A DNA stretch of 64,000 nucleotides from Minisyncoccota bacterium (GCA_041674105.1 JBAYWK010000001.1:1136-65135); one strand, 5' to 3'. Shown: positions 2,494-64,000, numbered from the stretch's first letter. Translations and numbers: made by a program. Notes: a model not told the origin generated them from the letters alone.

Positions 2494-4236
2494 GTGAATA
2501 AAGAATCGTTTAAAGCGATTATAAAGAAAAGGTGGAAAATCCCATATTCAGAGACAATATCAAAGACTATTGGTTCGTTTTCTCTTACAGAAAAAGTTAT
2601 CTTCTATTTATTTATATCTATATTTATAATAAGTAGTGTTGTGATGTTATGGAGAGTAAATGAATCTTATCTAGTAAAAATACCGACTTATGGAGGGACT
2701 CTCACAGAAGGAATAGTTGGCTATCCGAGATTTGTTAACCCTCTTTTATCTGTTTCTGATATAGATAGAGACCTAACTTCTCTTTTATACTCTGGCTTAA
2801 TGAAAGTAGATTCAGAAGGAAACTTGGTCCCAGACTTAGCGGAAGACTACTCAATATCAGAAGACGGAAAGACATATACTTTCACACTAAAAGATGATCT
2901 GTATTTTCATGACAATCAACCGATTACTGTAGATGACATTATTTTCACTATTGAAAAATCAAAAGATCCTATAATAAAAAGCCCTAGAAGAGTAAACTGG
3001 GAAGGTGTTGAGGTTATTAAAGTTGATGAAAAGACAATTGAGTTTATACTTAGACAAGCATATTCACCATTTATACAAAACACTACAATAGGAATACTAC
3101 CAAAACATATATGGAGCGGTGTAAGTAGCGAAGAATTCCCTTTTAGCCAGTTCAATATAAACCCTGTCGGATCTGGACCATACAAGGTTGACTCTATTGT
3201 ATACAGTGACGGAGGACTCCCTAAGGAATACAAACTAACCTCATTTAAAAAATATGCTTCTGGAAGACCATACATAACACATATAAATATAAAAACATAT
3301 GCAAATGATAAGGACTTGACTGATGCTTACAAAAAAGGAGATGTAATATCTATATATGGAATAAGTCCACAACTTTTAAGCGAGTTGAAAATACCGGAAG
3401 GAGACTTGAAAACCGCTCCCCTTCCTAGGGTTTTCGGTGTATTTCTAAACCAAAACTCAGCTCCAGCATTACTAAGAAACGAGGTCAGAGAAGCTCTAGA
3501 TATTGCCACAAACAAAAAAGAAATTATAGATACTGTTTTAGGTGGATATGGACAACCTATAAGTGGCCCAATACCTCCAAAAACTTTAGACCAAACAGAA
3601 TATACTTTTGATGAAACAAACATTGAAAGAGCCAAAGAACTACTTGCTTCAAACGGTTGGAAGGAAGATGAAAATGGTATATTAGAAAAAACTTCCGGAA
3701 AAGAGAAAATTAAATTGACCTTTTCAGTATCCACATCAGCTTCACCTGAATTGAAAGCCACAGCTCAAATGCTTCAAGCCGAGTGGCAAAAGATAGGCGC
3801 TCTAGTAGACATAAAAATATTTGATGTTGGTGACCTAAATCAAAATATAATAAAACCAAGAAAATACGATTCTTTATTATTTGGTGAAATAATAGGAAGA
3901 GACTTAGACCTTTATCCTTTTTGGCATTCATCCCAAAGAAATGACCCTGGTCTAAATGTTTCTATGTATACGAGTGTAAAAGCAGATAAAATATTAGAAA
4001 ATATAAGAGGTACTGTGGATCCAGAAGCCTTAGAAAAATTGTACACAGATTTTACAAAAGAAGTATCAAATGATAAACCAGCAATATTTCTTTATTCACC
4101 TTATTTCATTTATATAATGCCAACTTCTATACATAATGTTAAACTCGGACAACTAACAACACCATCTGAAAGATTTGATGGTATAGAGAATTGGTATATA
4201 GAAACAAATAGCGTTTGGAAAATATTTACAAAATAA
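2494..4236 (+). CDS. ABC transporter substrate-binding protein, family 5 (OppA/DppA-like peptide/nickel binding), N-terminal membrane anchor
   Basis: 580 aa with an N-terminal TM helix followed by an SBP_bac_5-like sequence (GGTLTEGIVGYPRFVNPLL..., KDDLYFHDNQPITVDDI). Confidence 0.65.
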   Translation: MNKESFKAIIKKRWKIPYSETISKTIGSFSLTEKVIFYLFISIFIISSVVMLWRVNESYLVKIPTYGGTLTEGIVGYPRFVNPLLSVSDIDRDLTSLLYSGLMKVDSEGNLVPDLAEDYSISEDGKTYTFTLKDDLYFHDNQPITVDDIIFTIEKSKDPIIKSPRRVNWEGVEVIKVDEKTIEFILRQAYSPFIQNTTIGILPKHIWSGVSSEEFPFSQFNINPVGSGPYKVDSIVYSDGGLPKEYKLTSFKKYASGRPYITHINIKTYANDKDLTDAYKKGDVISIYGISPQLLSELKIPEGDLKTAPLPRVFGVFLNQNSAPALLRNEVREALDIATNKKEIIDTVLGGYGQPISGPIPPKTLDQTEYTFDETNIERAKELLASNGWKEDENGILEKTSGKEKIKLTFSVSTSASPELKATAQMLQAEWQKIGALVDIKIFDVGDLNQNIIKPRKYDSLLFGEIIGRDLDLYPFWHSSQRNDPGLNVSMYTSVKADKILENIRGTVDPEALEKLYTDFTKEVSNDKPAIFLYSPYFIYIMPTSIHNVKLGQLTTPSERFDGIENWYIETNSVWKIFTK

Positions 4237-4257: not shown

Positions 4258-6072
4258 ATGGAAAACACAAATACGCAAGAAACGAGAAGAGACACTGGAC
4301 CATCCAGAAGTAGAGGGCCCTCTAAAAGATCTTACTCTAGAAGAGACATCCCTTTAAAAATGACTAGAAAGACCAACGATATAATTCCTAGTGCAGGAGA
4401 TAATATCCGTATTATTCCCTTAGGAGGAGTAGAAGAAATAGGAAAAAATATGACAATGATTGAGTATAAAGACGACATCATAGTTATAGATATGGGATTC
4501 CAATTTAAAGATGATGATACTCCCGGAGTGGACTATATTTTACCAAACACAAAATACCTAGAAGATAGGAAAGACAAAATAAGAGGGGTAATAATAACTC
4601 ACGGACACTTAGACCACATAGGAGGTATTCCTTATATAATAGATAGAATCGGAAACCCACCTATCTATACCAGAGCTTTAACTAGCGTAATGATACGCAA
4701 GAGACAAGAGGAATTTCCTCACCTTCCAAACCTTGATATAAAAGTCGTGGAAAAAGAAGATAAGATACTTTTGGGAAACTTAAAAGTTAGATTTTTCTCT
4801 GTGACTCACACTATTCCCGACTCTATGGGACTTATAATAGAAACGCCTTTCGGATCTTTAGTGACTCCTGGAGATATCAAACTAGACCATGTGGACGGAG
4901 TGCCCACAGAAGCCGAAGAAAAAGAATACAAGCAATTTGAAAAAGAAAATGTTTTGCTTTTGATGATGGACTCAACAAATGTTGATAACCCAGGATTTTC
5001 TACACCAGAAAGACTAGTCCATGAAAACCTAGACAACATAATAAAAAATATCCAAGGAAGATTAGTTATTGGAACTTTTGCATCACAGTTAGAACGTGTG
5101 ATGAAAATAATTCTAATTGCTGAGAAATATGGGAAAAAAGTAGTGGTTGAAGGACGAAGTATGAAAAACAATATTGAGATTATCCGTAATATGGGAATTC
5201 TCAATGTTAAAAAAGATACTATTATCACTACAGACGAGATGGAAAACTATCCACCGGACAGAATCGTAGCTTTGGCTACAGGAGCCCAAGGAGATGAGTT
5301 TGCAGCTCTAATGAGAATGTCAAACAAGACTCACAAATATTTCAAAATAACACCGAGAGACACAATCCTTTTGTCCTCTTCTATTATCCCTGGAAACGAA
5401 AAATCTGTCCAAAAGCTAAAAGATAACTTAGCAAGACAAGGTGCAAAAATAATTCACTACCGTTCATCTGATGTGTATATTCACTCTACTGGGCACGGAA
5501 ATAGAGGTGAGCTTGAATGGCTACATAGAAAAATAAAACCTAAATTCTTTATGCCGATGCACGGAAGTCATTATATGCTTAGGCAACACGAAGATTTAGC
5601 AAAAGGTGTTGGTATGCCAGCTGAAAACATAATTGTTCCAGACAATGGGAGTATTCTAGAAATCCAAGATAATGGAACAAAATTTGTTAGATTGAAAGAA
5701 CAAGCTCCTAGTGGAATGGTTATGGTTGATGGTTTTTCTATTGGAGATGTCCAAGAACTTGTTATGCGTGATAGAAAAATGCTTGCCCAAGATGGTATGT
5801 TTGTAATTATTGCAAGTATAAATACTAAGACAGGAAGATTAAAAAAATCACCAGACATTATATCTAGAGGATTTGTATACCTCAGGGAATCACAAGACTT
5901 ATTACAACAAGCTAGAATAATAATAAAAAAGAGCGTAGAAGAAACTACCAGAGGAATGAACCCTATAAACTTTGATTTTGTAAAATCTACAGTTTCAGAT
6001 AATGTCGGAAGGTTTCTATTCCAAAAGACAGCTAAAAAACCTATCGTCATACCAGTTATACTCGGAGTATAA
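4258..6072 (+). CDS. rnj: Ribonuclease J (metallo-beta-lactamase / beta-CASP RNase)
   Basis: It has the HGHLDHIGG motif. PLGGVEEIGKNMTMIEY..IVIDMG at the start and the 604 aa length are typical of RNase J1/J2, and it carries a basic N-terminal extension. Confidence 0.85.
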   Translation: MENTNTQETRRDTGPSRSRGPSKRSYSRRDIPLKMTRKTNDIIPSAGDNIRIIPLGGVEEIGKNMTMIEYKDDIIVIDMGFQFKDDDTPGVDYILPNTKYLEDRKDKIRGVIITHGHLDHIGGIPYIIDRIGNPPIYTRALTSVMIRKRQEEFPHLPNLDIKVVEKEDKILLGNLKVRFFSVTHTIPDSMGLIIETPFGSLVTPGDIKLDHVDGVPTEAEEKEYKQFEKENVLLLMMDSTNVDNPGFSTPERLVHENLDNIIKNIQGRLVIGTFASQLERVMKIILIAEKYGKKVVVEGRSMKNNIEIIRNMGILNVKKDTIITTDEMENYPPDRIVALATGAQGDEFAALMRMSNKTHKYFKITPRDTILLSSSIIPGNEKSVQKLKDNLARQGAKIIHYRSSDVYIHSTGHGNRGELEWLHRKIKPKFFMPMHGSHYMLRQHEDLAKGVGMPAENIIVPDNGSILEIQDNGTKFVRLKEQAPSGMVMVDGFSIGDVQELVMRDRKMLAQDGMFVIIASINTKTGRLKKSPDIISRGFVYLRESQDLLQQARIIIKKSVEETTRGMNPINFDFVKSTVSDNVGRFLFQKTAKKPIVIPVILGV

Positions 6073-6120
6073 TAAATATTTCTTTTTTAATTATATCTTT
6101 TAAGATACAATATATATTGT

Positions 6121-7296
6121 ATGGGAAAAATCGTATCTATTTTAAGGCAAAGTAAATTACTAAATGTAATTTTTATTTGTCAGATATTTTTATCTTTTCA
6201 CTATTACCTAATAATATATATAAACTCTTCTTTTCTAGATCAGTTTTTTACAGAAACTCAAATCAGTAGTTTATATATCATAGGTTCAGTCTTAAGCATA
6301 TTCGTACTCCTTAACATATCAAAGCTCTTAAAAAAAATAGGAAATTATAAAACAACTTTATATGGAATAGCGTTAGAAATGATATCTATCTTAGGTCTAA
6401 CTCTGTCTTCAAACCCTTTCCTAATAGCTCTATATTTCACTATCACTCAAATAGTAAACCTAACAATCTTGTTTAACCTTGATATTTTTCTAGAAAGTCT
6501 CTCTACAAAAGAAGAAGACACCGGAAGTATAAGGAGTATCTATCTTACCGTATCAAATATAACTTTAGTCATAGCTCCTACTATAGCCTCTTTCCTCATA
6601 ATCCAAGATACTTATTGGAGAGTTTACGCAACCTCTTTTCTTTTTATAATTCCTCTATATATTTTTATAAAAAGATATTTCAAAGATTATAAAGACACAA
6701 CCGAAAAACATATAAAAATAAGAGAAACTATAAAGGAGTACCTCCGTGAAAAAAAACTTTACAATATATTTATAATATATTTTTTACTTCAATTTTTTTA
6801 TGCTTTTATGGTGGTTTATACTCCAATATATTTACGAAACATTGGTTTTGCTTGGTCAGAAATTGGAATTATGTTTACAATAATGCTTTTACCTTTTGTC
6901 ATCTTTCAAATACCTGTAGGAAACTTGGCGGACAACAAGTATGGAGAAAAAGAATTTATGACAATAGGACTCATTATTATAGGACTAGCTACAATGTCTA
7001 TGGGCTTTATAACCACACAGAGTTTTATTATTTGGACATCTCTTTTATTTATGTCCCGTGTAGGGGCAAGTATTTTAGAAATAACAGCTGATAGCTACTT
7101 CTTTAAACAAGTAAATCAAGAAAAAACAAATCTAATAGGTTTCTATAGAATAGCTAGACCTTTATCATTTGTCGTTGCTCCTATAGTCACAACTATTGCT
7201 TCTCAATTTATTCCACTTCAATATACTTTCTTGGTCATGGGAGCCTTTATGATAATAGGCGTAAAATATAGTCTTTCAATAATAGACTCAAGATAA
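6121..7296 (+). CDS. MFS-type membrane transporter (12 TM predicted)
   Basis: 391 aa, highly hydrophobic with repeated TM helices in the 6+6 organisation typical of MFS. Confidence 0.55.
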   Translation: MGKIVSILRQSKLLNVIFICQIFLSFHYYLIIYINSSFLDQFFTETQISSLYIIGSVLSIFVLLNISKLLKKIGNYKTTLYGIALEMISILGLTLSSNPFLIALYFTITQIVNLTILFNLDIFLESLSTKEEDTGSIRSIYLTVSNITLVIAPTIASFLIIQDTYWRVYATSFLFIIPLYIFIKRYFKDYKDTTEKHIKIRETIKEYLREKKLYNIFIIYFLLQFFYAFMVVYTPIYLRNIGFAWSEIGIMFTIMLLPFVIFQIPVGNLADNKYGEKEFMTIGLIIIGLATMSMGFITTQSFIIWTSLLFMSRVGASILEITADSYFFKQVNQEKTNLIGFYRIARPLSFVVAPIVTTIASQFIPLQYTFLVMGAFMIIGVKYSLSIIDSR

Positions 7297-7297
7297 A

Positions 7298-9199
7298 TTA
7301 AGATAATATTTTTAGAATTTCTTCTAATTTTATTTCAGCCACATCTATAACAGAATCAGCTCCTCCATAGTACATAAGAATCTTTCCGTCTCTCAAAACA
7401 GCGCCACAAGGAAAGACAACGTTGTTAACTTGTCCAGTTAAATCGTGCTCATCTAAAGGAGAGAAAATATAATCTGTCGTTCTAGATAAGACAATAGTAG
7501 GATCTTTGAGGTCTAGCAAGGCAGCTCCAACTCTATAAACGGAATTTTCTGAAACGCCGTGATACAAAAGAATCCAACCTTTTTTAGTTTTTATAGGAGG
7601 AGCAGATATTCCCACTTTTTTACTATCCCACATACCTCTTCTTGGAAGTAAAAGTGGTATATTTTTAAATGAATTTCTTTCGGTAAAAGCTGGAGTCTTC
7701 CCATAATCAACACATATATAATTATTTACTCTATGAAAGAGCATATACTTACCTTTAATCAACTCCGGGTGAAGACATCCATCTTTATCGTCTACCCCAT
7801 CTGCAGTAACCAAAACAGGTTTAGACCAATTCCATTTTCTATCTACAAAATCTTTCTTTGAGATATAGGACATAGCTACAGCTGGAGGAGTTATACCGTT
7901 GTACGCAGTATAATAGACATATATTGTATTGCCTATCTGAGTTAGTCTAGGGTCTTCACACCCAGAATTACCTCCAGGAATTCTCTTTTCTTCAAAATAC
8001 TCTCTAGGAACATAGACAGGATTATCTCCTTTATAAGTTATCTTTGTTCCATTCTTTGTCAAAGCAATTCCCATTACGGAAGTATTATCTTCAGACATCG
8101 CCCTATACAAAATACTTATTACACCATTTATATCTATACAAGCAGGATTAAAGATGGCTCTTGATTCCCAAAAAACATCTTTTCTTGGAACAATCAAAGG
8201 ACCCTTGGTTAGTCTTCTGAAACCACTTTCTTTATGAGGATATTTCATCGATTTTATAAGTGATTCCAAAGAAACTGTGGCCAAAGCTACGGTTGTGTCG
8301 GTTGACCCATAATATATATATAAATCTTTTCCTCTGATAATGGCTCCACTTGGAAATATTGTATTTCTGACCATTCCATATATTTCATACTGTTCTTCAG
8401 GCACCAAAATTGGACCTTTAGTTTTACCTATTATTTTTAAAGGATTCTTTAAATCTAGAAGTAGGCATTCTATACCAAAAATTTTATTTGAACTCAGATA
8501 ATTTTGTATACTTGAATAAACTAAAAGCCAGCCATCTTTTGTCTTTACAGGACAACCTCCTATTTCAACATGATCGCCTGGCGATTTTGGAATTGTTAAA
8601 ATGTGTTTATCTAAATCTTTATACCATTTATTCCAATAATCTTCTGACCAAATATCTTCTATTTTATCAAATTCAGCCAAGGCAATACTGGAAGGTGGTA
8701 AATCAGGGTGAACTGTAAGCAAGGCCACATACTTACCATTTATTTTTTCTGGAAACAAAGTCATGGCTTTGGCATTAAACGGTGTGACCAAATGCTTTTC
8801 ATAAACCTTTTTTAAATCATTGCTTATAGCTAAGCCAACTTTTATACCTTGAGCCGTAAATGGGTAAACAGATAAGGCTGTATAAAAAATATAATATTTA
8901 GAACCTATTTTTGTAACTCTCGGGTCCTCACATCCAAATCTTTCCCATTTCTCTTCTGGTAAAATAAACTGTTCCCTTTTAGTAAAATTTATACCATCAC
9001 GACTAACAGCTTTACTTATACTAGATAAAGAAAAAATATCATTACCCACCTTCTCTGGTAGTGATTGAGCTCTATATAATAGATTTATGCTAGAGCCAAC
9101 CATTATAGGATTACCATTGAAAGTTGCATAACCTTCAGAAGAATGTCCTTTCTCTGGACCTATTAGTGGGTTCTTTTTGTTTCTTTTAACGATAAACAT
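7298..9199 (-). CDS. Tandem GH130-family glycoside phosphorylase/hydrolase-like protein (two GH130-like beta-propeller domains)
   Basis: 633 aa with two repeats that each end in the GH130 C-terminal motif (LYIYYGSTDTTVALA and ILMYYGGADSVIDVA), plus conserved DPR/EDPR motifs. Confidence 0.65.
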   Translation of the reverse strand: MFIVKRNKKNPLIGPEKGHSSEGYATFNGNPIMVGSSINLLYRAQSLPEKVGNDIFSLSSISKAVSRDGINFTKREQFILPEEKWERFGCEDPRVTKIGSKYYIFYTALSVYPFTAQGIKVGLAISNDLKKVYEKHLVTPFNAKAMTLFPEKINGKYVALLTVHPDLPPSSIALAEFDKIEDIWSEDYWNKWYKDLDKHILTIPKSPGDHVEIGGCPVKTKDGWLLVYSSIQNYLSSNKIFGIECLLLDLKNPLKIIGKTKGPILVPEEQYEIYGMVRNTIFPSGAIIRGKDLYIYYGSTDTTVALATVSLESLIKSMKYPHKESGFRRLTKGPLIVPRKDVFWESRAIFNPACIDINGVISILYRAMSEDNTSVMGIALTKNGTKITYKGDNPVYVPREYFEEKRIPGGNSGCEDPRLTQIGNTIYVYYTAYNGITPPAVAMSYISKKDFVDRKWNWSKPVLVTADGVDDKDGCLHPELIKGKYMLFHRVNNYICVDYGKTPAFTERNSFKNIPLLLPRRGMWDSKKVGISAPPIKTKKGWILLYHGVSENSVYRVGAALLDLKDPTIVLSRTTDYIFSPLDEHDLTGQVNNVVFPCGAVLRDGKILMYYGGADSVIDVAEIKLEEILKILS

Positions 9200-9210
9200 T
9201 TATGGAATAA

Positions 9211-11094
9211 TTATAACATTTTCTCTGAAACTTTTTTCAGATTATATGTTTCTTTTGGAGAATTGACTAGGTGATCTAACAAATCTTCTAGTTTAGTGGT
9301 TGCTACACATATAACCTTGTCACCCCCACCATAATATATATATAAATCATCTCCTTTTATTATAGCCCCTGAATTATAGACCACTCCTGGTTTACCATCA
9401 TTTTCATAATGCATATCGGGTGAAAGAAGAGGGTTTGTTGATCTGTACAATATCTTAGTAGGATTTCCGGCGTCAAGAATCATTGCTCCAAGTTTATATT
9501 TATTTGGATCAAACTTATCCATTGCGTGATACAACAGAAGCCATCCCAATCTCGTTCTTATTGGAGGAGGGCCCGCTCCACGAACTTTATTGTCCCAGTA
9601 TAAATCTCTACCTCCTTTTGGCGGAGAACTTTTTATATATTTAGAATCATCAAAATCATCTAGATCATCTATGTAATCAACCAATATTTTAGGAGAAACT
9701 CCATGAAGTATTGCATACTTACCTTTTATCTTTTCTGGAAATAATACCCAGTTTTTATGTACTTCTCCTGGCGGAGAAATAAGTACAGGTTTTTTCCACT
9801 TCCAATGACCCCTTTTAAAATCCTCATTACTTATAGATGTAATAGCAATCCTAACAGAATGCCACCCTTCAAAAGCCACATAGATCATATAAATAGTATC
9901 GTCAATCTTAACAACTCTTGGATCCTCGGCTCCACACCAACCTCCACCAGAAGTATAATAGCCAGGAGTATATGCTACTGGACCCCTATACATTTTGGAA
10001 TCGGCCATTCCAAAACCCAAGGATGGTTCAAAAACTGGATAATTTAGCCTTTTTGCAAATGAAACACCGTCTAAGCTCTGGGCATAACCTACTCTAGATA
10101 TTCCATCTCCTCCCATAGCTCTATACAAAATATGAACAACACCTTCTTCATCAGTGAAAACTGCAGGATTAAATACCGCTTCAGATTCCCATTCATTATG
10201 TGGATGAGGTTTTATTATTGGGTTAGAAACACAACGCTTTAATATATCGGATGTTTTTATATGAGGAATTAAAACATCTCTAAAGAGAATAGGGACAGAA
10301 ATAACTATTATGGAACCTTGGCTCTCCAACCAATAAATATTCATTCTTTCATTTAACACTATTCCTCCTATGCACTTTATATGACTACCTTTCTTATGAG
10401 TCTCCAATATAGACTGAATAATAGGATCATCGGATCTCCACAAAACCCTGTTAGAATCATCTTTATCAAGTAAAACAGCACCAATTTGCAATAATATTTT
10501 ATTATTATGGTTCACAGAAGCATCATACAAAACCAGAACGCCTCTTGGAGTTTTAAATGAACCTATAATAACTATTGGGTCTTCATCAAAGCGTCCACCT
10601 CTAGATGTAAAAATCAAACTAGGTAGACTTTTCCAAGTTAATAAATTTTTTGAAGATTGCCTTCTGACAAATAAACCATCTCTAAAAATTTCAAATTCTG
10701 AAAGTTTTTCATTATAGAAGACTGTGGCCTTTTCTGAATCTCCTGAATCTAGCTCAGACTTTACATTCCACTCATAACCATCTTTTGATAAAGCTATGAT
10801 TATTTTTTTATCCTTTTTCTCTTCTCTTATGTAGGTTGCTACTAAACCCCTTGAAGTTCCTGAAATAGAAAAATTTGAACAATGTGATAAGTTTTCTTGT
10901 TTCTTATCTTTTTTATTTAAAGTAACTTTCTTTGAATCTGGATGAAAATTTATTCCGTCTGTACTCATTGATATATAGAGTACCTCTTTTGTGCCTTGTT
11001 GTTTTTTTGACAACATTGCTACGCAATCACCAACATTAAATATCGCCATTGGAATATCAGATATTTTTTTGGTTTTGGCGATATCTTTTTTCAT
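9211..11094 (-). CDS. Second tandem GH130-family glycoside phosphorylase-like protein
   Basis: 627 aa with NPAVF..EGVVHILYRAMG, EDPRVVKIDDTIYMIYVA and the C-terminal LYIYYGGGDKVICVA. It is a paralog of the adjacent gene. Confidence 0.6.
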   Translation of the reverse strand: MKKDIAKTKKISDIPMAIFNVGDCVAMLSKKQQGTKEVLYISMSTDGINFHPDSKKVTLNKKDKKQENLSHCSNFSISGTSRGLVATYIREEKKDKKIIIALSKDGYEWNVKSELDSGDSEKATVFYNEKLSEFEIFRDGLFVRRQSSKNLLTWKSLPSLIFTSRGGRFDEDPIVIIGSFKTPRGVLVLYDASVNHNNKILLQIGAVLLDKDDSNRVLWRSDDPIIQSILETHKKGSHIKCIGGIVLNERMNIYWLESQGSIIVISVPILFRDVLIPHIKTSDILKRCVSNPIIKPHPHNEWESEAVFNPAVFTDEEGVVHILYRAMGGDGISRVGYAQSLDGVSFAKRLNYPVFEPSLGFGMADSKMYRGPVAYTPGYYTSGGGWCGAEDPRVVKIDDTIYMIYVAFEGWHSVRIAITSISNEDFKRGHWKWKKPVLISPPGEVHKNWVLFPEKIKGKYAILHGVSPKILVDYIDDLDDFDDSKYIKSSPPKGGRDLYWDNKVRGAGPPPIRTRLGWLLLYHAMDKFDPNKYKLGAMILDAGNPTKILYRSTNPLLSPDMHYENDGKPGVVYNSGAIIKGDDLYIYYGGGDKVICVATTKLEDLLDHLVNSPKETYNLKKVSEKML

Positions 11095-43645: not shown

Positions 43646-44713
43646 TTATATCATTCTCTCTAATCCTCTTGGATTTTGAGAATACATATATGCATTTTCT
43701 ATTGTTATCTCTCCGCTCCTGACTAACTCGGAAAGATACCTGTTTAAATCTATCATACCAAATTCTGAACCTGTCTCTATTACAGAGTTTATTTCGTGAA
43801 TTCTGTTCTCTCTAATAAGATTTGCTACTGCGGTATTGTTTATAAGTAATTCACAAGCAGGAATAAGTCCACCTGATACTCTAGGTATAAGTCTTTGAGA
43901 AAAGATACCAAGCAAACTGGAAGACAGTTGAACTCTAATCTGGTTTTGTTGTTCACCTGGAAATGAATCTATTATACGACCTATAGTTTGAGCAGCATTG
44001 TTTGTGTGAAGAGTAGAAAACACCAAGTGGCCTGTCTCAGCAGCTGTCACTGCTGTAGCAATAGTTTCTTGATTACGCATCTCACCTATCATAACCACAT
44101 CCACATCTTGCCTAAACAAATCTTTCATTGCTTGCCCAAAATCCGGTGTGTCTTCCCTTACTTCCCTTTGATCTACCAAAGCTTTTTTTGATTCAAAAAT
44201 ATATTCAACGGGATCCTCTATTGTAATTATATGTTCCAACCTCGTTGCGTTTATCATATCTATCATCGCTGCCAAAGTAGTGCTTTTACCTTGACCTGTG
44301 GGTCCGACAACTAAAAAGAAACCTTGCTGTTTAGAAGTAAAAGATTCTAGTATTGTAGGTATCCTAAGCTCCGCAAAAGTTTTTACTGTATGAGGAATAA
44401 GACGCAAAGCTATACTTATCTTACCAAGCTGGAAGAATATATTTACCCTAAATCTTGCTTGTTCTTTGTATTGGAAAGAAAAATCAATTGCTTTATCTTT
44501 TAGAAATCTGGTTTTCTTTTCTTCATCTAGAAGTTCATCCATAATACCCTTTATGTCAAACTTAGAAAGTACAGGGTGTTTCAATATTGGTATTAAAGAT
44601 CCAGACACACGCATGATAGGCGTCCTCCCATCAGCCAAGTGAAGGTCTGAAGCCTCTTCCTGCAAGACCGTTGCTATCAACTCGTCTATCATTTTTTTAT
44701 AGTCAGATGTCAT
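43646..44713 (-). CDS. pilT: Twitching motility retraction ATPase PilT
   Basis: Walker A GPTGQGKSTT, Asp box, Walker B and His box are present; the 355 aa length is typical of PilT. Confidence 0.9.
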   Translation of the reverse strand: MTSDYKKMIDELIATVLQEEASDLHLADGRTPIMRVSGSLIPILKHPVLSKFDIKGIMDELLDEEKKTRFLKDKAIDFSFQYKEQARFRVNIFFQLGKISIALRLIPHTVKTFAELRIPTILESFTSKQQGFFLVVGPTGQGKSTTLAAMIDMINATRLEHIITIEDPVEYIFESKKALVDQREVREDTPDFGQAMKDLFRQDVDVVMIGEMRNQETIATAVTAAETGHLVFSTLHTNNAAQTIGRIIDSFPGEQQNQIRVQLSSSLLGIFSQRLIPRVSGGLIPACELLINNTAVANLIRENRIHEINSVIETGSEFGMIDLNRYLSELVRSGEITIENAYMYSQNPRGLERMI

Positions 44714-45114
44714 TTATTTTTATTATTTTGATAAATTTCTAATACCTGTTCTACAACTTCTGAAGGAATAGTTGTTGCTTTTACAATATAGCCCGAAACA
44801 CCTAACTCCTTAGCCCTATCAACCTCGTCGGGTTGATTTGTAAGCATTATTATCGTAGCTTCTGGGCAAAGTTTTTCTTTCCTTATATTCTCCAATAATT
44901 CCATACCGTCCATACCAGGCATAATTATGTCCAAAAGTATGACATCATATTTTTCACCTGCCCTAAGTTTATCCAAAGCATTTATACTGCTAGACACAGC
45001 TGAAACATCTACACCAGCCTTTTTAAACTTAAGCGAATACATATCCAAAAGAAAACTATCGTCGTCTACAAGTAATATTTTTATTCCCTTTTTTTCTTCG
45101 TTATTTTCTGTCAT
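44710..45114 (-). CDS. CheY-like response regulator receiver protein (PilH-like) embedded in the pilus operon
   Basis: KILLVDDDSFLLDMY...DVILLDIIMPGMDGMELLENIRK is a receiver domain with the conserved Asp; 134 aa with no output domain. Confidence 0.75.
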   Translation of the reverse strand: MTENNEEKKGIKILLVDDDSFLLDMYSLKFKKAGVDVSAVSSSINALDKLRAGEKYDVILLDIIMPGMDGMELLENIRKEKLCPEATIIMLTNQPDEVDRAKELGVSGYIVKATTIPSEVVEQVLEIYQNNKNK

Positions 45115-45123
45115 ATATTTCTA

Positions 45124-46887
45124 TTATAGCGTATTTACCTCTTCAAAAGGAATCTCCTTGTGCATTGCTTTAAGTATAGCGTCCTCTTTCATTGAAAGCA
45201 TACCTTTTTCTCTAGCCAATTTTGTTATTTCAATCTCAGTAGGATTTTTCAATATGACGCTTTCCAGCTCTTTATCCATTTCAAAGACTTCTAGGACCGC
45301 CAGTCTTCCTCTCGTACCCTTTGGACAGCCTGAAGTTGGAGTAGCTTCATACACAGAGTCTGTAAACTCTAATTTATTTAAATATTTTTCTGGAAGATCA
45401 ACAAACTGTTTATCTACCATCATCTTTATGGCACCTTCTACCGGAATAGCTTTACCTGAATCTGGACAAAGCCCTTTTACCAACCTCTGGGCAATAGCCA
45501 AAATCAAAGTAGGAGCGATGAGGTATGGATCAACTCCCATATCAACAAGTCTTGGTATAACACCCACAGCTGAGTTGGTGTGAATGGTAGAAAAAACCAA
45601 GTGACCAGTAAGGGCCGCTTGAATAGCAAGCTGAGCTGTCTCTTTATCTCTAATCTCACCAACCATAATAACATCTGGGTCCTGTCTCAAAGTAGTACGG
45701 AGTCCCGAAGCAAATGTATAACCTATTTCTGGACGGACTTGAGACTGCGATATACCTTCCATATTGTATTCAACAGGATCTTCCAAAGAAAGAACATTTT
45801 GATGTTCACGGTCTATTTGGTTTAACATTGAATACAAAGTAGTAGTTTTTCCAGAACCTGTCGGACCAGAAATAAGAATTAAACCATAAGGTCTTTCTAT
45901 AGCTTTCAATATTTTATCTAAATTACCTTTAGACAGACCAAGTTGATCCAAAGGCCTAACTCCTTTTTCTTGATCCAAAATTCTCATCACAATTTTCTCT
46001 CCAAAATAAGCAGGAAATGTAGAGACACGGAAGTCTATCTTTCTTCCTTCTATCCTAGCTGTAAAACGCCCGTCCTGTGGCTTACGCTTCTCATCAAGAC
46101 GCATATTACAAAGTATTTTTATACGGGCTACGACTGCTGAGTGCAGTTTAGAAGGAAGGACCAAACTGGTATTCATAACACCATCTACACGAAATCTGAC
46201 TTTTACATTTTCCCTCCATGGTTCTATGTGAATATCTGATGCATTTCCGTCTGTGGCATATCTCAAAATAGTAGCTACTATTTTTGTCACAGGAGCATCT
46301 TCAGTAATTTTACCATCTCTACTACCAGAATCTCCTGAATCAGCAGAATCGGTACTTTCTTCTGTATCCAAAGCCTCTTTATTATTATCTTTCTTTTTGT
46401 TTACTTCTTCTTCTATTTTAAGCTCTGTCTCCAACTCAGATAAAGCTTTGGAAACCTCACCCGTCAAACCTTTATAAGTAGAAAATATTTTATTAAAATC
46501 TTCTTCAGAAATCATAAAAACCTTAAAAGGCATTTCTATTTTTGCTGAAATAAAATTTAAAGCATCTCTTGCCCCTATGTTATCTGGATCAACCATTCCA
46601 ACCTCCAAAACACCATCTTGTATTCCTATTGGCACAAACTGGTAGTGAGAAGCGGACTCTTCTGGAATATATTCCAAAATTTTACCGGAAACCTCTTTAC
46701 CTTCCATACTTCTAGTTGGAACATCAAGAAATTCCCCTTGAGCAGCTAAAATATCACTTGGAGAAAAACCTTTTTGGACCAAAGTCTGTTCCAAAGTTAA
46801 ACCAAGTTTTATTGATTCTTTTCTAATAGATTTGGCTTCTACTTCAGAAATCTTTCCTCTTTGAGTTAATAGGTTCAATATATCCAT
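45124..46887 (-). CDS. pilB: Type IV pilus assembly ATPase PilB (GspE family)
   Basis: The N-terminal GspE_N domain is followed by GPTGSGKTTT. The tetracysteine motif (CPDSG...CPKGTRG) is typical of PilB. Confidence 0.9.
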   Translation of the reverse strand: MDILNLLTQRGKISEVEAKSIRKESIKLGLTLEQTLVQKGFSPSDILAAQGEFLDVPTRSMEGKEVSGKILEYIPEESASHYQFVPIGIQDGVLEVGMVDPDNIGARDALNFISAKIEMPFKVFMISEEDFNKIFSTYKGLTGEVSKALSELETELKIEEEVNKKKDNNKEALDTEESTDSADSGDSGSRDGKITEDAPVTKIVATILRYATDGNASDIHIEPWRENVKVRFRVDGVMNTSLVLPSKLHSAVVARIKILCNMRLDEKRKPQDGRFTARIEGRKIDFRVSTFPAYFGEKIVMRILDQEKGVRPLDQLGLSKGNLDKILKAIERPYGLILISGPTGSGKTTTLYSMLNQIDREHQNVLSLEDPVEYNMEGISQSQVRPEIGYTFASGLRTTLRQDPDVIMVGEIRDKETAQLAIQAALTGHLVFSTIHTNSAVGVIPRLVDMGVDPYLIAPTLILAIAQRLVKGLCPDSGKAIPVEGAIKMMVDKQFVDLPEKYLNKLEFTDSVYEATPTSGCPKGTRGRLAVLEVFEMDKELESVILKNPTEIEITKLAREKGMLSMKEDAILKAMHKEIPFEEVNTL

Positions 46888-46926
46888 AAGATTTTATAGC
46901 ACTAAAAAACTTTTTAATTCAGAAAA

Positions 46927-47226
46927 CTAATTACCTTTTCCTATTGAAGCAAATGGGTTATCCCTTCCTTGAATTTCTTGACTAACAGAGGAATCTGCAT
47001 TTTTTAAACTTCTAAAAAGTGGTGAAGAAAAAACAGAAGCATTTATAGTTATGTCTTGAAATTCTTCAGCCAAATCTATAATATCTTGACTATCTGAATC
47101 TTCTTCTGAAAAAGAGTTATCGGAGATAATAAGTGCAGATTTGAAAAATGAATTGTAAACGATAAAACCAGACAAACCAAACATTATTATCGCTATGATT
47201 GCCTTTTGTGTTTGTGATAATGACAT
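46927..47226 (-). CDS. Small hypothetical membrane-anchored protein in the pilus operon (possible PilP-like role)
   Basis: 99 aa with an N-terminal TM helix; identified by position between pilO and pilB. Confidence 0.3.
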   Translation of the reverse strand: MSLSQTQKAIIAIIMFGLSGFIVYNSFFKSALIISDNSFSEEDSDSQDIIDLAEEFQDITINASVFSSPLFRSLKNADSSVSQEIQGRDNPFASIGKGN

Positions 47227-47241
47227 AATGTTTATTTTAAA

Positions 47242-47799
47242 TTAACGAAGTGAATATGTGTTGGCTTCGACCGAAAATCCTAATATTGAACTATCTTCAT
47301 TCTGACTATTTGGAACTACCTTGATCGAGTAAACATCTATCAATTGAAGGTTCTTCTCAAGATCTTTTAGAAAACTAACAAATTGTGGATATGTCGCATC
47401 CATAGTGAAAGAGACTTTTATTTTCTGATAAGGAGTTGGCTTTTGTTCTTCTAGTGCAACCTCAGAGTTATTTTCCGAAGTTAAGGCATAATCAAAAGAA
47501 TCAATAGATGTATTGTATCTTGAAGCAAGAGAATTTATATCATTTGCAAGGCTTGGTCCGTCAAAATTCACAGGAACTACTTTTTTCATTTTTTCTATAT
47601 CATCTACAGGAATAGATTTATATTCCGAAAGAACCTCATCTCTTTTTGTTGAAATATTTTTTGCCTTTTCGAGCACATCAGCAAATTTATCTCTGTCTTC
47701 CATAACCATTTTCAGGTCAGCATAAGAAGGACTGAGATATAGATAATATGTAGCTATACAGATTATTATTATAATAATTGGGGTTAATCCTGATCTCAT
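47242..47799 (-). CDS. PilO-like pilus assembly protein
   Basis: N-terminal TM then a coiled-coil and periplasmic domain. It overlaps the PilN-like gene by 4 nt, in the pilMNO order. Confidence 0.5.
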   Translation of the reverse strand: MRSGLTPIIIIIICIATYYLYLSPSYADLKMVMEDRDKFADVLEKAKNISTKRDEVLSEYKSIPVDDIEKMKKVVPVNFDGPSLANDINSLASRYNTSIDSFDYALTSENNSEVALEEQKPTPYQKIKVSFTMDATYPQFVSFLKDLEKNLQLIDVYSIKVVPNSQNEDSSILGFSVEANTYSLR

Positions 47800-48452
47800 A
47801 TTTCTTCTTGGTTAGCTGGTATTGTTTCCTCTTGTGGAACTGGCACCACTTCTTCCTGAATAACCGGTATCAGAGTTTTCTCATATGAAAGTATTGCTGG
47901 ATCTATAACAGATTTGAAAGTAGCTGTTATTGTTCCACCTTCTGAAAGCTCAAAGCTAGAAAATTCGGGGTTCATTATAAATTCTTGGTTTGAAAAAATT
48001 CCAGACTGCTGAGCAAAAGCTGAATAACTTTTTCCTTCCATTTTTACATCAACAACTATTTGACCGGCTAATTCAGAATAAGAAAAATCTGTAAAACGAA
48101 TAGGTTTAATTGTCAGAGATTGTAAAACATTAAACAGAGAAGATATGGCTACGTGTTTTTGTAAAAGTTGGTTTGTAGACCTTATTGTTTTGTTGAAATC
48201 TATAAGCTCTTTTATTGTTTCTGGTTGAAAAGCATCTCTGGTATCAGATATGTCAGCTTTTATTGAAAGAATCTCTTTGTTTACTATTCTCTTATAAAAA
48301 AACAAAGCTCCTCCAGCAAGTAGGGTGGCAATGAAAAGTAAAGTGGCCACAGTAGAGAATATATCAAAAGAGCCTCCTTTTTTCATTGGATCTTCTCTCT
48401 GTGTACTTATCGGAGATTTTGGAATGAACGATGTTTGAAATTTGGGCTCCAT
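47796..48452 (-). CDS. PilN-like pilus assembly protein
   Basis: TM helix (IATLLAGGALFFY) followed by a periplasmic domain; it sits immediately downstream of pilM. Confidence 0.5.
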   Translation of the reverse strand: MEPKFQTSFIPKSPISTQREDPMKKGGSFDIFSTVATLLFIATLLAGGALFFYKRIVNKEILSIKADISDTRDAFQPETIKELIDFNKTIRSTNQLLQKHVAISSLFNVLQSLTIKPIRFTDFSYSELAGQIVVDVKMEGKSYSAFAQQSGIFSNQEFIMNPEFSSFELSEGGTITATFKSVIDPAILSYEKTLIPVIQEEVVPVPQEETIPANQEEI

Positions 48453-48497
48453 AATTTAAACTAATTATAATATACAGAAAAATAAAACGCTACAAAC

Positions 48498-49622
48498 TTA
48501 TTCCACTTCTTGAAGTTTTCTAAGTGCTAAACCAACAGCAACAGCAAACTGAGGTCCCGTTCTTTTTAATACATCTTCCAAAAATGCCGGTGTGATTACT
48601 TTTGAAAAAGGATCTCCGCTAACGACTTCTGTTTGAAAACTTTTTTTGGCAATTTCTGTCAAACCAATAAGGGCACTGCCTCCCCCAACCATAACGACCT
48701 TGCTTACATTTTTATTATACTTTTTTTCATAAGCGATAATCACCCGATTTGCTTCTGAAAAAATATAATCTATAGTCACAGTCATAATATCTTTTACCCC
48801 TATATTGTCAGTTATGTTTGTTAGACCTTTTTCTCTTTTCAAGACCTCCGCTTCGGTGAAAGATATTCCCAAAGATTTTGCCAAAGCCGATGTCACAGCA
48901 TAAGAACCTTTATTTATGGTATGAGAAGCCCTGAGTATACCCTTTTCAACTATATATATTTTTGTGGTCATTGCTCCCATATCCAAAAGCATCATTGGAG
49001 TAATCTCTTGATCCAAAACAGATCTCATTGTGCTAAATATTTCTATTTCAAAAAAGTCTGTTTGAAGACCACTTTGTGTGGCGATCTTTTTGTATTTTTC
49101 TATTGTTCCATTATGGAGAGCAACAACCAAAACTTCTAATCTAGGTGGAAGAGGTTTACCATCTGGACCGAACTTCTGGTTTGGATTTGATTCTGGATTT
49201 TTATCCTGAGGAATAAGTGACCAGTCTATAGTAACTTCTGACATAGGCACGGGCACATACTTCCTAGCTTCAAGAGGAACCATATTTGCCAATTCTTTTG
49301 CAGAAACCATAGGAAAATCTATAACAGAAACCAGACTAGAAGAAAAAGGTATAGCTATACCACATATCCTAGTAGTAATATTCACTTCCTTTTCAACCAA
49401 TAAATCATTTATAGCCTCAACAACCTTATTTAAAGGCAAATTAGTAGCTTCACCAATACTACCGTGAGCATAAGGACCCAAAGACAATTCTCCGTACGTC
49501 TCCAAAACAGCTCTCCCACTTTTACGAGAAAGTTGAACTAGTTTTATAGAAGAAGTTCCAATATCCAAACCAATAACACTTGGACTCTGTTTTTTAAATA
49601 AATTAGTAAAGAAATTCGCCAT
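48498..49622 (-). CDS. pilM: Type IV pilus assembly protein PilM (actin-like ATPase fold)
   Basis: VIGLDIGTSSIKLVQL at the N-terminus, ...LLDMGAMTTKIYIV..., and GGGSALIGL near the C-terminus. Confidence 0.85.
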   Translation of the reverse strand: MANFFTNLFKKQSPSVIGLDIGTSSIKLVQLSRKSGRAVLETYGELSLGPYAHGSIGEATNLPLNKVVEAINDLLVEKEVNITTRICGIAIPFSSSLVSVIDFPMVSAKELANMVPLEARKYVPVPMSEVTIDWSLIPQDKNPESNPNQKFGPDGKPLPPRLEVLVVALHNGTIEKYKKIATQSGLQTDFFEIEIFSTMRSVLDQEITPMMLLDMGAMTTKIYIVEKGILRASHTINKGSYAVTSALAKSLGISFTEAEVLKREKGLTNITDNIGVKDIMTVTIDYIFSEANRVIIAYEKKYNKNVSKVVMVGGGSALIGLTEIAKKSFQTEVVSGDPFSKVITPAFLEDVLKRTGPQFAVAVGLALRKLQEVE

Positions 49623-50346: not shown

Positions 50347-50435
50347 GGAGCCGTGTCAGAGTGGTCTAACGTGCCTCTTTGCTAAAGAGGTGTACTTTTA
50401 AAAGAGTACCGATGGTTCGAATCCATCCGGCTCCG
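50347..50435 (+). tRNA. tRNA-Ser (anticodon GCU), type II with a long variable arm
   Basis: Acceptor GGAGCCG/CGGCTCC, anticodon stem CCTCT/AGAGG with loop TTGCTAA, long variable stem-loop, T arm GATGG-TTCGAAT-CCATC, discriminator G. Confidence 0.8.
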
Positions 50436-50451
50436 CTACGGTAATAAATAA

Positions 50452-50541
50452 GGAGAGATGGGTGAGTGGCTGAAACCAGCGGTTTACTAAACCGCCGTGC
50501 CCTAACCGGCACCGAGGGTTCGAATCCCTCTCTCTCCGCCA
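50452..50541 (+). tRNA. Type II (Ser-like) tRNA with CCA encoded. The apparent anticodon is ACU (loop TTACTAA), which is unusual.
   Basis: Acceptor GGAGAGA/TCTCTCC plus G plus CCA; D stem GGT/ACC; anticodon stem GCGGT/ACCGC; variable stem GTGCC/GGCAC; T arm GAGGG-TTCGAAT-CCCTC. Confidence 0.65.
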
Positions 50542-60044: not shown

Positions 60045-60314
60045 ATAAAAAAGCAAGGTTACTCCCCCCTTTTTTTTTGATTCTTGTTCCATATTTTTAG
60101 TAAGCACCAAGGAATCTCTCCCTCGAAATTTTTTCATCACAATTCATATCCGGACTCGACCCTTACAGGGTCAGTACCCCAATTGGATATTTTATTCCTC
60201 ATTCGACAAGCTCAGGATCATAAAATATCTCAATCGGGCTTCGAGTCCTGACGAAAGGTGCCCCACACCTTTCTGTGCGTACAAAAAATTTACTCCCGGG
60301 GAATTTATTGTGTG

Positions 60315-60480
60315 TCTATACAACCACGCTCGAACGTATCCTAGTAAGAATATCTGACAATTCTCCCACACGTGCTCCGCGCATAATGATATGAACCTGA
60401 ATCGTACGCTCTCGCCCCGCCACCCACCTCCTGCCGAGCCGTCCTCGCTTCGAGGTGAAAAATAATTATCTGATTTTCTT
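60315..60480 (+). repeat. Left copy of an imperfect inverted repeat (shared upstream module). It begins with a 25-nt exact match, tctatacaaccacgctcgaacgtat, and contains an internal insertion of about 75 nt relative to the right copy.
   Basis: The reverse complement of 63911..64000 aligns to 60315-60366 plus 60450-60480. It contains the ATCTGA / GATAAT-type internal half-sites. Confidence 0.85.
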
Positions 60481-60481
60481 C

Positions 60482-60510
60482 TTGACAAGGATTAAGGTAT
60501 AGCTTATATT
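60482..60510 (+). promoter_or_regulatory. Sigma70-like promoter (-35 TTGACA, 17-nt spacer, -10 TATATT) immediately downstream of the left repeat copy, driving the precursor peptide gene
   Basis: cTTGACAaggattaaggtatagctTATATTtattt. A strong SD AAAGGAG lies 6 nt before the ATG at 60577. Confidence 0.55.
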
Positions 60511-60576
60511 TATTTACAAATGGATGTGGAGACGTTCTTCACATTGTACATTCACAACTCTAGAAAGGAGACTGCC

Positions 60577-60705
60577 ATGAAGAACCCTAAAAAGTTCTCT
60601 TGGAAAGTCATCTCCAAGGACAAGCCTCTTCCCGGCACGATCGTGTGTCAGGAACAGTGCAGCTCCGGTGGTGGTGGCAACGGCAAGTGCGGCACCGGCA
60701 AGTAA
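60577..60705 (+). CDS. Candidate RiPP precursor peptide (42 aa): MKNPKKFSWKVISKDKPLPGTIVCQEQCSSGGGGNGKCGTGK
   Basis: It is GC-rich, with a strong RBS (AAAGGAG, 6-nt spacer). The C-terminal 19 residues are rich in Cys/Ser/Thr/Gly. It is followed by a 13-bp terminator hairpin and lies near the SagB-YcaO gene. Confidence 0.5.
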   Translation: MKNPKKFSWKVISKDKPLPGTIVCQEQCSSGGGGNGKCGTGK

Positions 60706-60723: not shown

Positions 60724-60763
60724 TCCCTCAAGTGGTGCAACAACTCTCGAGATTGTTGCACCA
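60724..60763 (+). terminator. Strong terminator hairpin AGTGGTGCAACAA-ctctcgagat-TTGTTGCACCACT plus TTTTT after the precursor gene
   Basis: 13-bp perfect stem followed by a T-run on the plus strand. It sits between the convergent gene ends. Confidence 0.7.
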
Positions 60764-60767
60764 CTTT

Positions 60768-61577
60768 TTACTTTATAATTTCGATAAATCTTTTAGGATT
60801 GGTTTTCATTAACTCATCCCAAGATAAATTTTTGTTCTTGTTTATAAATTCTTTAACTAACCAATATCCAACGGAGTACCCTGTCCATCTCTGATACTTG
60901 TCATTTCCAAACAAAAATTCTTTTATCACTTTCTGATCTCTGGACTCAAGAATATCTTTTGATCCCTTTAATACTTCAAACGCCTCATCTTTATTTAAAG
61001 CTCCAGCCCACTTGCTTACTTCAGGATGAAAATACTGCTCTCTAAAATTTTCTGCCAAACCTTCTATTAAGATTTCATCTAAAAGCGTGTAGTTACTAAA
61101 ATCATCGTAATGATGGTAATAATAGATTGTATGATTCAGTTCGTGAGCGACAGTATTTTCGATGGACTTTTTTGAGTATTCATCCAAATTTACAAACAAA
61201 TGAAAAACGCAACTGTAAACTGCTACAGCCATGACACCGTCAAAAACTTTGTCATCTTCGGTGGTAAGATATGGATGAACAAAAATAAAATTCTTAGTTG
61301 GAACAGGTAACTTTTCATTACACTTTTCAATAGTTTCTGAAATAGTTTTTTCTATTTCCAGCTTCTGCTCTTCAGAAATTCCTTTGTACTGTTCAATGTT
61401 TCCATTTCCAATGTGATCCAATAACCCCTGTTTTAACAAATCGATATTTGTATATCCACAATAATCAATGCTTCCTTTATCTTTTATCAAAGAAACAATT
61501 GAGCCCGCTATCTCATCTTTGTCCTTAAATTCTCCACTTGGAAAATAAAATTCAATTTGTGATAAATCTTTACTCAT
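60768..61577 (-). CDS. HExxH zinc-metallopeptidase-like protein (DUF2268-like), a candidate leader peptidase or immunity protein of the RiPP cluster
   Basis: 269 aa with the HELNH motif (TVAHELNHTIYYYHH). It is AT-rich, unlike its neighbours, and immediately downstream of the SagB-YcaO gene on the same strand. Confidence 0.45.
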   Translation of the reverse strand: MSKDLSQIEFYFPSGEFKDKDEIAGSIVSLIKDKGSIDYCGYTNIDLLKQGLLDHIGNGNIEQYKGISEEQKLEIEKTISETIEKCNEKLPVPTKNFIFVHPYLTTEDDKVFDGVMAVAVYSCVFHLFVNLDEYSKKSIENTVAHELNHTIYYYHHYDDFSNYTLLDEILIEGLAENFREQYFHPEVSKWAGALNKDEAFEVLKGSKDILESRDQKVIKEFLFGNDKYQRWTGYSVGYWLVKEFINKNKNLSWDELMKTNPKRFIEIIK

Positions 61578-61636
61578 AGCTTCATTTTAGCAAAATATAA
61601 AAGAGGCGGAAAGTTTTTAGCTTTCCGCCTCTGGGG

Positions 61637-63862: not shown

Positions 63863-63890
63863 ACATTACAATATATCTATTCTTGAGTCA
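63863..63890 (-). promoter_or_regulatory. Sigma70-like promoter for the SagB-YcaO operon (-35 TTGACT, 16-nt spacer, -10 TAATGT), immediately downstream of the right repeat copy
   Basis: The minus strand reads acTTGACTcaagatagatatattgTAATGTcg. The RBS AAAGGAGGGG lies before the ATG at 63817. Confidence 0.45.
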
Positions 63891-63910
63891 AGTAAAACGG
63901 TAAAACGTAC

Positions 63911-64000
63911 GGAAGCAAATCAGATAATCATTTTCCTCACCGGAGCAAGGAAATTATCAGACATTCTTGGTAAAATACGTTCGAGCGTGGTTGTATAGAT
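63911..64000 (-). repeat. Right copy of the inverted repeat (shared upstream module), truncated by the window edge
   Basis: Reverse complement atctatacaaccacgctcgaacgtattttaccaagaatgtctgataatttccttgctccggtgaggaaaatgattatctgatttgcttcc, which aligns to the left copy. Confidence 0.85.

Follow-up and report, generated by a model that had tools for sequence, protein, structure and literature searches.

Inverted copies of a hairpin-rich repeat as putative boundary arms of a transposase-less RiPP module in a Patescibacteria genome

Islets and islands linked to tRNA genes, including the tycheposon-type arrays, are integrated by site-specific recombinases. Repeat families such as REP/BIME, ERIC and Correia are present in tens to hundreds of copies per genome and, to our knowledge, do not bracket cargo genes. 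Two other arrangements place accessory genes between conserved ends. In mobile insertion cassettes and in MITE- or TIME-bounded transposons, inverted terminal repeats enclose passenger genes but no transposase (PMC3913671, PMC4133298). In the pdif (Xer) modules of Acinetobacter plasmids, the accessory module is bounded by inverted short conserved sites of 28 bp (PMC6449649, PMC13141974).

The genomes of Patescibacteria (CPR) are tiny, and the routes by which these bacteria gain accessory functions are very poorly understood. The locus described here lies at the end of a 64,000-nt stretch of DNA from a Minisyncoccota bacterium (hereafter, the window), where a first-pass annotation had reported one upstream module duplicated in inverted orientation in front of two convergent RiPP transcription units. 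This duplication is supported by independent evidence. A repeat search of the 64-kb window recovered two inverted blocks, one of 48 nt at 88% identity (60315-60362 / 63952-63999) and one of 40 nt at 80% (60442-60481 / 63912-63951), and each strand of the window carries one exact copy of the 25-mer TCTATACAACCACGCTCGAACGTAT, with no other present (0/100 shuffles). Both arms are also found in an ENA contig (L001) and, independently, in a 4.1-kb Logan unitig (L002), which rules out an artefact of assembly. The existence of two inverted arms thus stands, with corrected limits: the left arm starts at a GTGT at 60310, not at 60315, and the right arm exceeds the window. When the contig is extended beyond position 64000, as had been suggested, the repeat begins with GTGT in L001 and runs a few nucleotides (~4-10) past that position; a tRNA-Ile(UAU) gene then follows at the equivalent position 64178-64251, 173 nt beyond the outer end of the right arm and pointing into the insert. 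The features of the locus are collected in Table 1, and the loci compared with it are designated by numbers with the prefix L.

Table 1. Features of the RiPP locus and its flanks, numbered from the first nucleotide of the window.
Feature	Position	Strand	Remark
Imperfect direct repeat of ~30 nt, distal copy (GAAAAAATTTCGAGGGAGAGATTCCTTGGTGC on the - strand)	60104..60135	-	Resembles the tRNA-Ile 3' end
Hairpin-rich outer spacer	60150..60309	+	Homologous to the outer flank of the L031 cassette (5380-5260)
Left arm	60310..60481	+	172-nt internally deleted copy of repeat E; nhmmer E=1e-16
Precursor promoter, TTGACA-17-TATATT	60482..60510	+	Immediately inside the left arm; 11/12 matches
5' UTR hairpin, 8 bp, ATGTGGAG-acgtt-CTTCACAT	60524..60544	+	At the predicted transcript start
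RiPP precursor gene, 42 aa (MKNPKKFSWKVISKDKPLPGTIVCQEQCSSGGGGNGKCGTGK)	60577..60705	+	
Perfect hairpin, 14-bp stem, between the convergent units	60730..60766	.	Inverted-repeat search
DUF2268 protein, predicted peptidase	60768..61577	-	Pfam PF10026
Fused SagB-type dehydrogenase and YcaO cyclodehydratase, 726 aa	61637..63817	-	PF00881 + PF02624
YcaO promoter, TTGACT-17-TAATGT	63863..63891	-	Read from the sequence
Right arm (full copy 93 nt, ends 4 nt beyond the window)	63912..64000	-	Copy of repeat E

On the evidence of alignment with related loci, both arms are eroded, internally deleted copies of a GC-rich, hairpin-rich repeat of ~350 bp, named E. Full-length copies measure 345-355 nt (L031, L034, and L011 once its IS110 element is removed). 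All of the copies share a head of ~50 nt, GTGT(A/G)TCTATACAACCACGCTCGAACGTATTTTAGCAA(G/A)AAT, which the head alignment reveals to be conserved as a 50-nt block and not as a short dyad. The body is variable and GC-rich, with nested hairpins, and exists in several types; sub-hairpins inside E appear in either orientation among different copies. The tail end is again conserved, as CCTCGCTTSGG..GCGAA followed by an A/T run. The left arm of the window retains the head (GTGTGTCTATACAACCACGCTCGAACGTAT...), part of the GC-rich tail and the tail end (CCTCGCTTCGAGG plus an AT-rich run), with the middle missing, while the right arm is reduced to the head and the final ~40 nt of the tail. Given the length of the full-length relatives, the difference between left and right reflects differential deletion, not insertion. 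The 75-nt insertion initially attributed to the left copy is therefore to be read in reverse, both window copies being internal-deletion derivatives.

The folding of E provides no case for a strand-specific RNA, since the full element folds as well on one strand as on the other (z about -4 each) and covariation is almost absent, with a weak signal in the head-proximal part. In six sequences searched against Rfam (the window, L001, L011, L016, L026 and L031), only tRNAs reach gathering scores, and none of the weak sub-threshold matches (E≤1) in the same six falls on an arm. Several other identities were considered and discarded. No model supports a riboswitch, a hammerhead or the start of a group II intron, which CUGAUGA-like and GUGYG-like strings had brought to mind. 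An ECF-type promoter in the head (GAAC-N15-TCTGA) loses both its motif and its spacing in the head-2 and type-2 variants. Mimicry of a tRNA by the head was rejected as well, as its register misfits the T-arm and the acceptor arm and ARAGORN finds nothing. A separate palindromic module of ~95 nt sits between a tRNA gene and a head in L016 (1796-1890) and L026 (7600-7690), in opposite orientations. Its termini are CACCA..GACTTTTCGG / CCGAAAAGTC..TGGTG, and its stem is closed by the CACCA of the tRNA 3' end pairing with the TGGTG of the head.

The search for further copies, also suggested by the first-pass annotation, was productive outside the window and not within it. A metagenome scan with a 19-mer core returned 9 true copies, and among 185,579 representative genomes the exact core is present in two assemblies, one of Doudnabacteria and one of Saccharibacteria. 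The head profile gave 28 matches at E≤10 among the loci compared, 25 of them at E≤4e-8. In the 64-kb window, neither the 25-mer search nor the head profile found any copy of E besides the two arms. E is low in copy number (2 per 64 kb in the window) and transposase-less, unlike the plain IS or MITE, present at many loci beside transposase genes, that the first-pass annotation had named as its refutation. Plasmid and phage collections hold no similarity to E, and the single viral-contig match to the E query is short and chance-like. The literature searched contains no description of such an element in Patescibacteria/CPR. Heads nearly always follow a tRNA gene or a terminator-like hairpin with a T-run, and they are often located at contig ends.

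The distribution of E crosses wide taxonomic distances. Head and tail are 94-96% identical between the Saccharibacteria assembly and this Paceibacterota genome, which belong to different classes, and the YcaO protein is 76-90% identical across at least 5 different genomic contexts. Judged by these identities, both E and the cassette have moved horizontally.

The closest relatives of the RiPP cassette are built alike: in L031 the cassette is enclosed by perfect inverted repeats of 354 nt whose inner ends reach the two -35 boxes, and in L032 and L034 by inverted repeats of 88-98% identity that abut both -35 boxes. Other E pairs surround unrelated genes. In L017, an inverted pair (287 nt at 100%) encloses ArsR, a MerA-like protein and 2 membrane proteins, resembling a mercury-resistance operon. 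An inverted pair brackets a diversity-generating retroelement in L021, an HTH regulator with radical-SAM, sulfotransferase-like and aldo-keto-reductase genes in L023, and two small genes in L022. Finally, L016 holds a near-empty inverted pair of ~170 nt downstream of tRNA-Ile(GAU). The heads are inverted and terminal in the window, L017, L021, L023, L031 and L016, whereas the order of head orientations along a locus differs: they alternate in L023 (875+, 5239-, ~7059+) and do not in L017 (125+, 3455-, 10084-). The same ends recur at several unrelated loci and genomes, with or without cargo. The retroelement of L021 (2169-6577) is complete between its arms, with a 693-aa target gene, template and variable repeats at 4323-4453 and 4775-4905 and a reverse transcriptase at 5218-6309.

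It is proposed, with about even confidence, that the window arms are the boundary arms of a transposase-less accessory module inside a tRNA-linked islet, and that E pairs delimit such modules. Of the two functions put forward in the first-pass annotation, terminal inverted repeats of a mobile cassette had been given as the alternative to an operator; this alternative now appears the better fit and is the best supported, with E pairs bracketing unrelated cargo. By comparison, a one-off inverted duplication of an upstream region, functionless and slowly decaying, is highly improbable and disfavoured. Identity between the window copies falls to 80-88% outside the core, and the internal part that is lost differs from one copy to the other, as decay would predict. 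Nevertheless, the 25-nt core is identical in both window copies and in copies from other Patescibacteria classes, positions of the head beyond the 19-mer used for searching are conserved as well, and the same architecture recurs around unrelated cargo.

A further reading makes E a long palindromic intergenic element behind terminators and tRNAs, in whose centre cargos were inserted, leaving the arms as a split target. The near-empty pair of L016 behind its tRNA, the usual position of heads after a terminator-like hairpin with a T-run or a tRNA, the existence of the RiPP core without E and the use of the E tail as a target by an IS110-family element are all compatible with this idea. So are the inner junctions: L021 and L022 share conserved sequence over the ~50 nt immediately inward of each arm (junctions alpha and beta) in spite of their different cargo, suggesting a cargo slot. 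However, near-identical E in different Patescibacteria classes implies that E itself was transferred horizontally, and no insertion signature was seen at the cargo junctions. Such a split target is distinctly unlikely, and the evidence fails to separate E as a landing pad from E as a vehicle.

The islet of the window contains only the precursor, DUF2268 and SagB-YcaO genes. The precursor gene is ~87-90% identical in DNA sequence to those of L003, L009 and L010, and the DUF2268 gene adjoins the YcaO gene in all of the cassettes compared. The SagB-YcaO protein has 367 homologues, of which the few with a source name belong to Patescibacteria-group bacteria, apart from one record labelled Pacearchaeota. 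The composition of the segment 60750-63900 is a mosaic, with 43-49% GC in the SagB-YcaO and precursor genes and ~32% in the DUF2268 gene, against ~33% for the genome. The hairpin between the convergent units is likely a bidirectional terminator. Another strong hairpin, of 12 bp and followed by a T-run, lies on the minus strand at 61602-61632, between the YcaO stop and DUF2268 start codons, and looks like an internal terminator or attenuator in the presumed operon. The hairpin at 60524-60544 recurs in the other cassettes, where compensatory changes preserve it (L003, for instance, has GTGTAAAG/CTTTACAC); it could be an mRNA-stabilising 5' element or an operator.

The promoter facing the precursor, already recognized in the first-pass annotation, is confirmed as the best sigma70-type match in the region, at a position conserved in 7 lineages. 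For the promoter facing the YcaO gene, the TTGACT and TAATGT boxes hold in the same 7 lineages, with a spacer of 17 nt rather than the 16 nt first given. In the alignment of these 7 cassette lineages, the -35 TTGAC and the -10 are positionally invariant at both promoters, while spacers and upstream sequences vary. Four lineages (L003, L009, L010 and L035) keep both promoters with no E upstream. The promoters, conserved with or without E, therefore belong to the cassette core and not to E. The cassettes without E have instead unrelated direct flanking repeats (163 nt in L003, 78 nt in L035, 32 nt in L009) or an adjacent insertion sequence, which indicates that the cassette core can move without E. 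The repeats of L003 (5659-5819 / 9354-9515) are 91% identical and those of L035 (4826-4903 / 8368-8445) 96%. A third partial copy in L035 (10102-10137) follows the next two-gene unit, as in a tandem cassette array. At 2883-4173, next to the RiPP cassette of L035, there is also an ECF-type sigma factor gene (Sigma70_r2/r4_2), a possible regulator at that locus, and the gene downstream of it is a candidate anti-sigma factor.

Each arm of the window ends at the -35 of one of these conserved promoters, and this arrangement is compatible with a cis-regulatory reading, in which E, or at least its head and the end next to the promoter, would be bound by a regulator or would serve as an insulator or UP element, so that precursor and enzyme are co-regulated. 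In four lineages (the window, L031, L032 and L034), the end of the arm coincides with the -35 at both promoters. Both eroded copies retain the head and the promoter-proximal ~40 nt, which are AT-rich at -40 to -60, while the middle is lost. Other copies of E likewise precede genes in the same orientation (ArsR and a 323-aa gene in L017, the target gene in L021). Nevertheless, the same promoters are conserved without E in the four lineages named above, and a hairpin-rich body of 350 bp is far larger than an operator. The ATCTGA half-sites that had suggested a dimeric-regulator operator are present in the window, but L031 and L034 lack the promoter-proximal one, and no regulator gene is linked to E in the window. 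Furthermore, arms face gene 3' ends or nothing at four loci. In L017, the right arm faces the 3' end of the mer-like operon; in L021, it lies downstream of the reverse transcriptase and also faces a gene 3' end; in L023, both outermost genes end (3') at the arms; and the near-empty pair of L016 has no gene to face. The arms are consequently not simply upstream modules. With promoters kept where E is missing and E occurring without a gene to regulate, co-regulation through duplicated cis elements is not sustained, and the cis-regulatory reading as a whole is unlikely. A regulatory role restricted to the promoter-proximal end of the arms may be possible, if doubtful, and is not needed to explain the data.

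The boundary-arm reading also takes in the position of the module beside a tRNA. The islet, of 4.1 kb, lies 3' of tRNA-Ile(UAU) between convergent neighbours. The imperfect direct repeat listed in Table 1 has its partner just outside the window, at the equivalent position 64036-64066, and the two copies bound a 3.9-kb insert. When the outer flanks are aligned locally in direct orientation they score 31, a value reached by 0/500 shuffles. L031 has a comparable duplicated 3' end of tRNA-Leu. In the outer spacer of the window, GGACTCGA (60152) pairs with TCGAGTCC (60243) around a 19-bp hairpin (60177-60238); the spacer also holds a tRNA T-arm-like TTCGAGTCCTG and, just before the arm, a terminator-like hairpin with a T-rich run. 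A Logan unitig breaks within this region, at 60150-60179, and a break also falls inside the tRNA; these breaks give a hint of alternative alleles.

In a syntenic relative, L038, the gene order is unchanged (RecG, a 287-aa gene, tRNA-Ile(UAU), an 84-aa gene, FtsH, SmpB), but only 76 nt separate the 287-aa gene from the tRNA where the window has 4.1 kb, and both the cassette and E are absent. The right flank of the window retains an ancestral spacer motif that is seen in L038. This comparison, together with the cargo survey, shows that E is a repeat family bracketing different cargos in inverted orientation and that the islet is absent from a syntenic relative. The empty site of L038 is bounded by tRNA-like direct repeats outside E, and no filled/empty comparison was seen with E itself as the boundary. 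E or the cassette follows six different tRNA genes, each reading in its direction: tRNA-Ile(UAU), Leu(GAG), Glu(CUC), Leu(UAG), Ile(GAU) and Val(GAC). Beside its tRNA-Ile(UAU), L038 (7060-7165) also contains an apparent 5' half of a second tRNA followed by GC-rich sequence, which may represent a disrupted or intron-containing tRNA gene. Elsewhere in the window, two tandem tRNA-Ser genes are found at 50347-50541, for one of which ARAGORN gives the anticodon ACT, unusual for its unmodified A at position 34.

Inverted repeats of such length, some of them perfect (354 nt in L031, 287 nt in L017), also raise the possibility that the 3.5-kb cassette inverts by homologous or site-specific recombination between the arms, as in phase variation. 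The occurrence of sub-hairpins within E in both orientations among copies, and the serine recombinase gene beside a head in L013 and L021, could be taken in the same sense. Yet the tRNA is on the YcaO side in every contig: the window contig and the unitig, the tRNA-Leu lineage (four contigs from different samples) and L010. The window encodes no invertase, and an inversion would carry both promoters along with the segment and so would leave expression unswitched. The inversion first envisaged for the segment is thus not borne out by its single orientation, and this reading is very unlikely.

A possible enzyme acting on the arms was sought within and around the modules. The window contains neither a transposase homologue nor an invertase, no recombinase was found in any E module, and the islet has no integrase. 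An autonomous element with a transposase between E-type ends was not found in the loci compared. Five pairs were checked for a target-site duplication, and none has a direct repeat of 2-10 nt next to its GTGT termini. Among candidate partners, the DDE transposase of L015 was rejected because it is not bounded by heads. The large serine recombinase that adjoins the head in L013 and L021, in two divergent copies, was also rejected as a general partner of E: 0/4 relatives from viral contigs show a head, three of these having ~1 kb or more of downstream sequence and the closest, L040, lying on a contig that ends ~100 nt past the gene. IS110-family elements target repeats, and the one in L011 (546-1910) was rejected as the mobilising enzyme, being a secondary insertion inside the E tail. 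It is placed precisely within the tail (...cattcctccccctgaccc / ccttccgccgcgtcctcgc...) and has a copy of CCCTGACCC in its non-coding left end, as expected for a target specified by its own RNA.

Combining these data, a model can be outlined in which, in Patescibacteria, inward-facing inverted E pairs would delimit accessory modules of ~2-4.5 kb without a recombinase. The module of the window would be the three-gene RiPP cassette, with its own two promoters immediately inside the arms. The islet would have entered by site-specific recombination at the tRNA 3' end, and the arms would act as module boundaries where DNA is exchanged. A recombinase supplied in trans could carry out this exchange or, once DNA has been taken up, RecA could recombine homologous arms. 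Inverted arms would leave the cargo in place, which direct arms would not. Any effect of the arms on expression would be secondary, through the AT-rich UP-like stretch at -40 to -60 or through insulation from read-through. More tentatively, and with less than even confidence, the E arms might be the sites of a trans-acting recombination system that shuffles modules of ~2-4.5 kb among Patescibacteria at tRNA-side slots. The modules shuffled in this way would carry RiPP, metal-resistance, retroelement or defence-like genes, and the system would be a chromosomal counterpart of the plasmid dif modules that uses a new site of ~50 nt. At ~38100-49600, the window contains a large type IV pilus/pseudopilin-like cluster with several GFTLIELLVV prepilin motifs and ATPase-like ORFs, which would be relevant if modules are exchanged via DNA uptake.

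If E arms mark exchangeable modules, they would offer a sequence handle on the flexible gene pool of these organisms (RiPPs, metal resistance, retroelements and defence genes) and would help in seeking the enzyme or pathway that moves the modules. For the RiPP cluster itself, the promoters to map are the two conserved sigma70-type ones inside the arms, with predicted starts downstream of 60510 on the + strand and of 63863 on the - strand, and co-regulation cannot be assumed from the repeat alone.

Set against the systems described at the outset, the E module shares features with each of them. Like tRNA-linked islands, the window insert lies 3' of a tRNA, with direct repeats similar to the tRNA 3' end on its flanks, additional scars of tRNA fragments, accessory cargo and an empty site in a relative; unlike them, it has no integrase and places inverted E arms inside the direct repeats. 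Like REP/BIME, ERIC and Correia repeats, E is GC-rich, mosaic, hairpin-forming and intergenic, is found after terminators, has sub-units in either orientation and is targeted by an IS110-family element, but it is low-copy and associated with modules.

The likeness to mobile insertion cassettes and MITE- or TIME-bounded transposons (PMC3913671, PMC4133298) comprises passenger genes without a transposase between inverted terminal repeats, a miniature near-empty version (L016) and the same ends around different cargo. In contrast with these cassettes, E has no target-site duplication and no known cognate insertion sequence, and its arms, of up to 354 nt with nested hairpins, are low-copy and tRNA-adjacent. 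With the pdif modules (PMC6449649, PMC13141974), E shares inverted conserved sites around accessory modules, varied contexts, the lack of a recombinase in the module and of a target duplication and, in L023, the alternation of heads (+, -, +). The differences are that E is chromosomal and tRNA-linked whereas pdif is plasmid-borne, that its unit consists of ~50 nt plus a tail of ~300 nt instead of 28 bp, and that the heads of L017 run (+, -, -). Inspection of the E head alignment by eye revealed no recognisable 11-6-11 site of the XerC/XerD type. Having no target duplication or cognate transposase, E modules fall outside the definition of mobile insertion cassettes and, with no Xer site recognisable by eye, they would probably fall outside that of dif modules; these two systems are nonetheless their nearest analogues.
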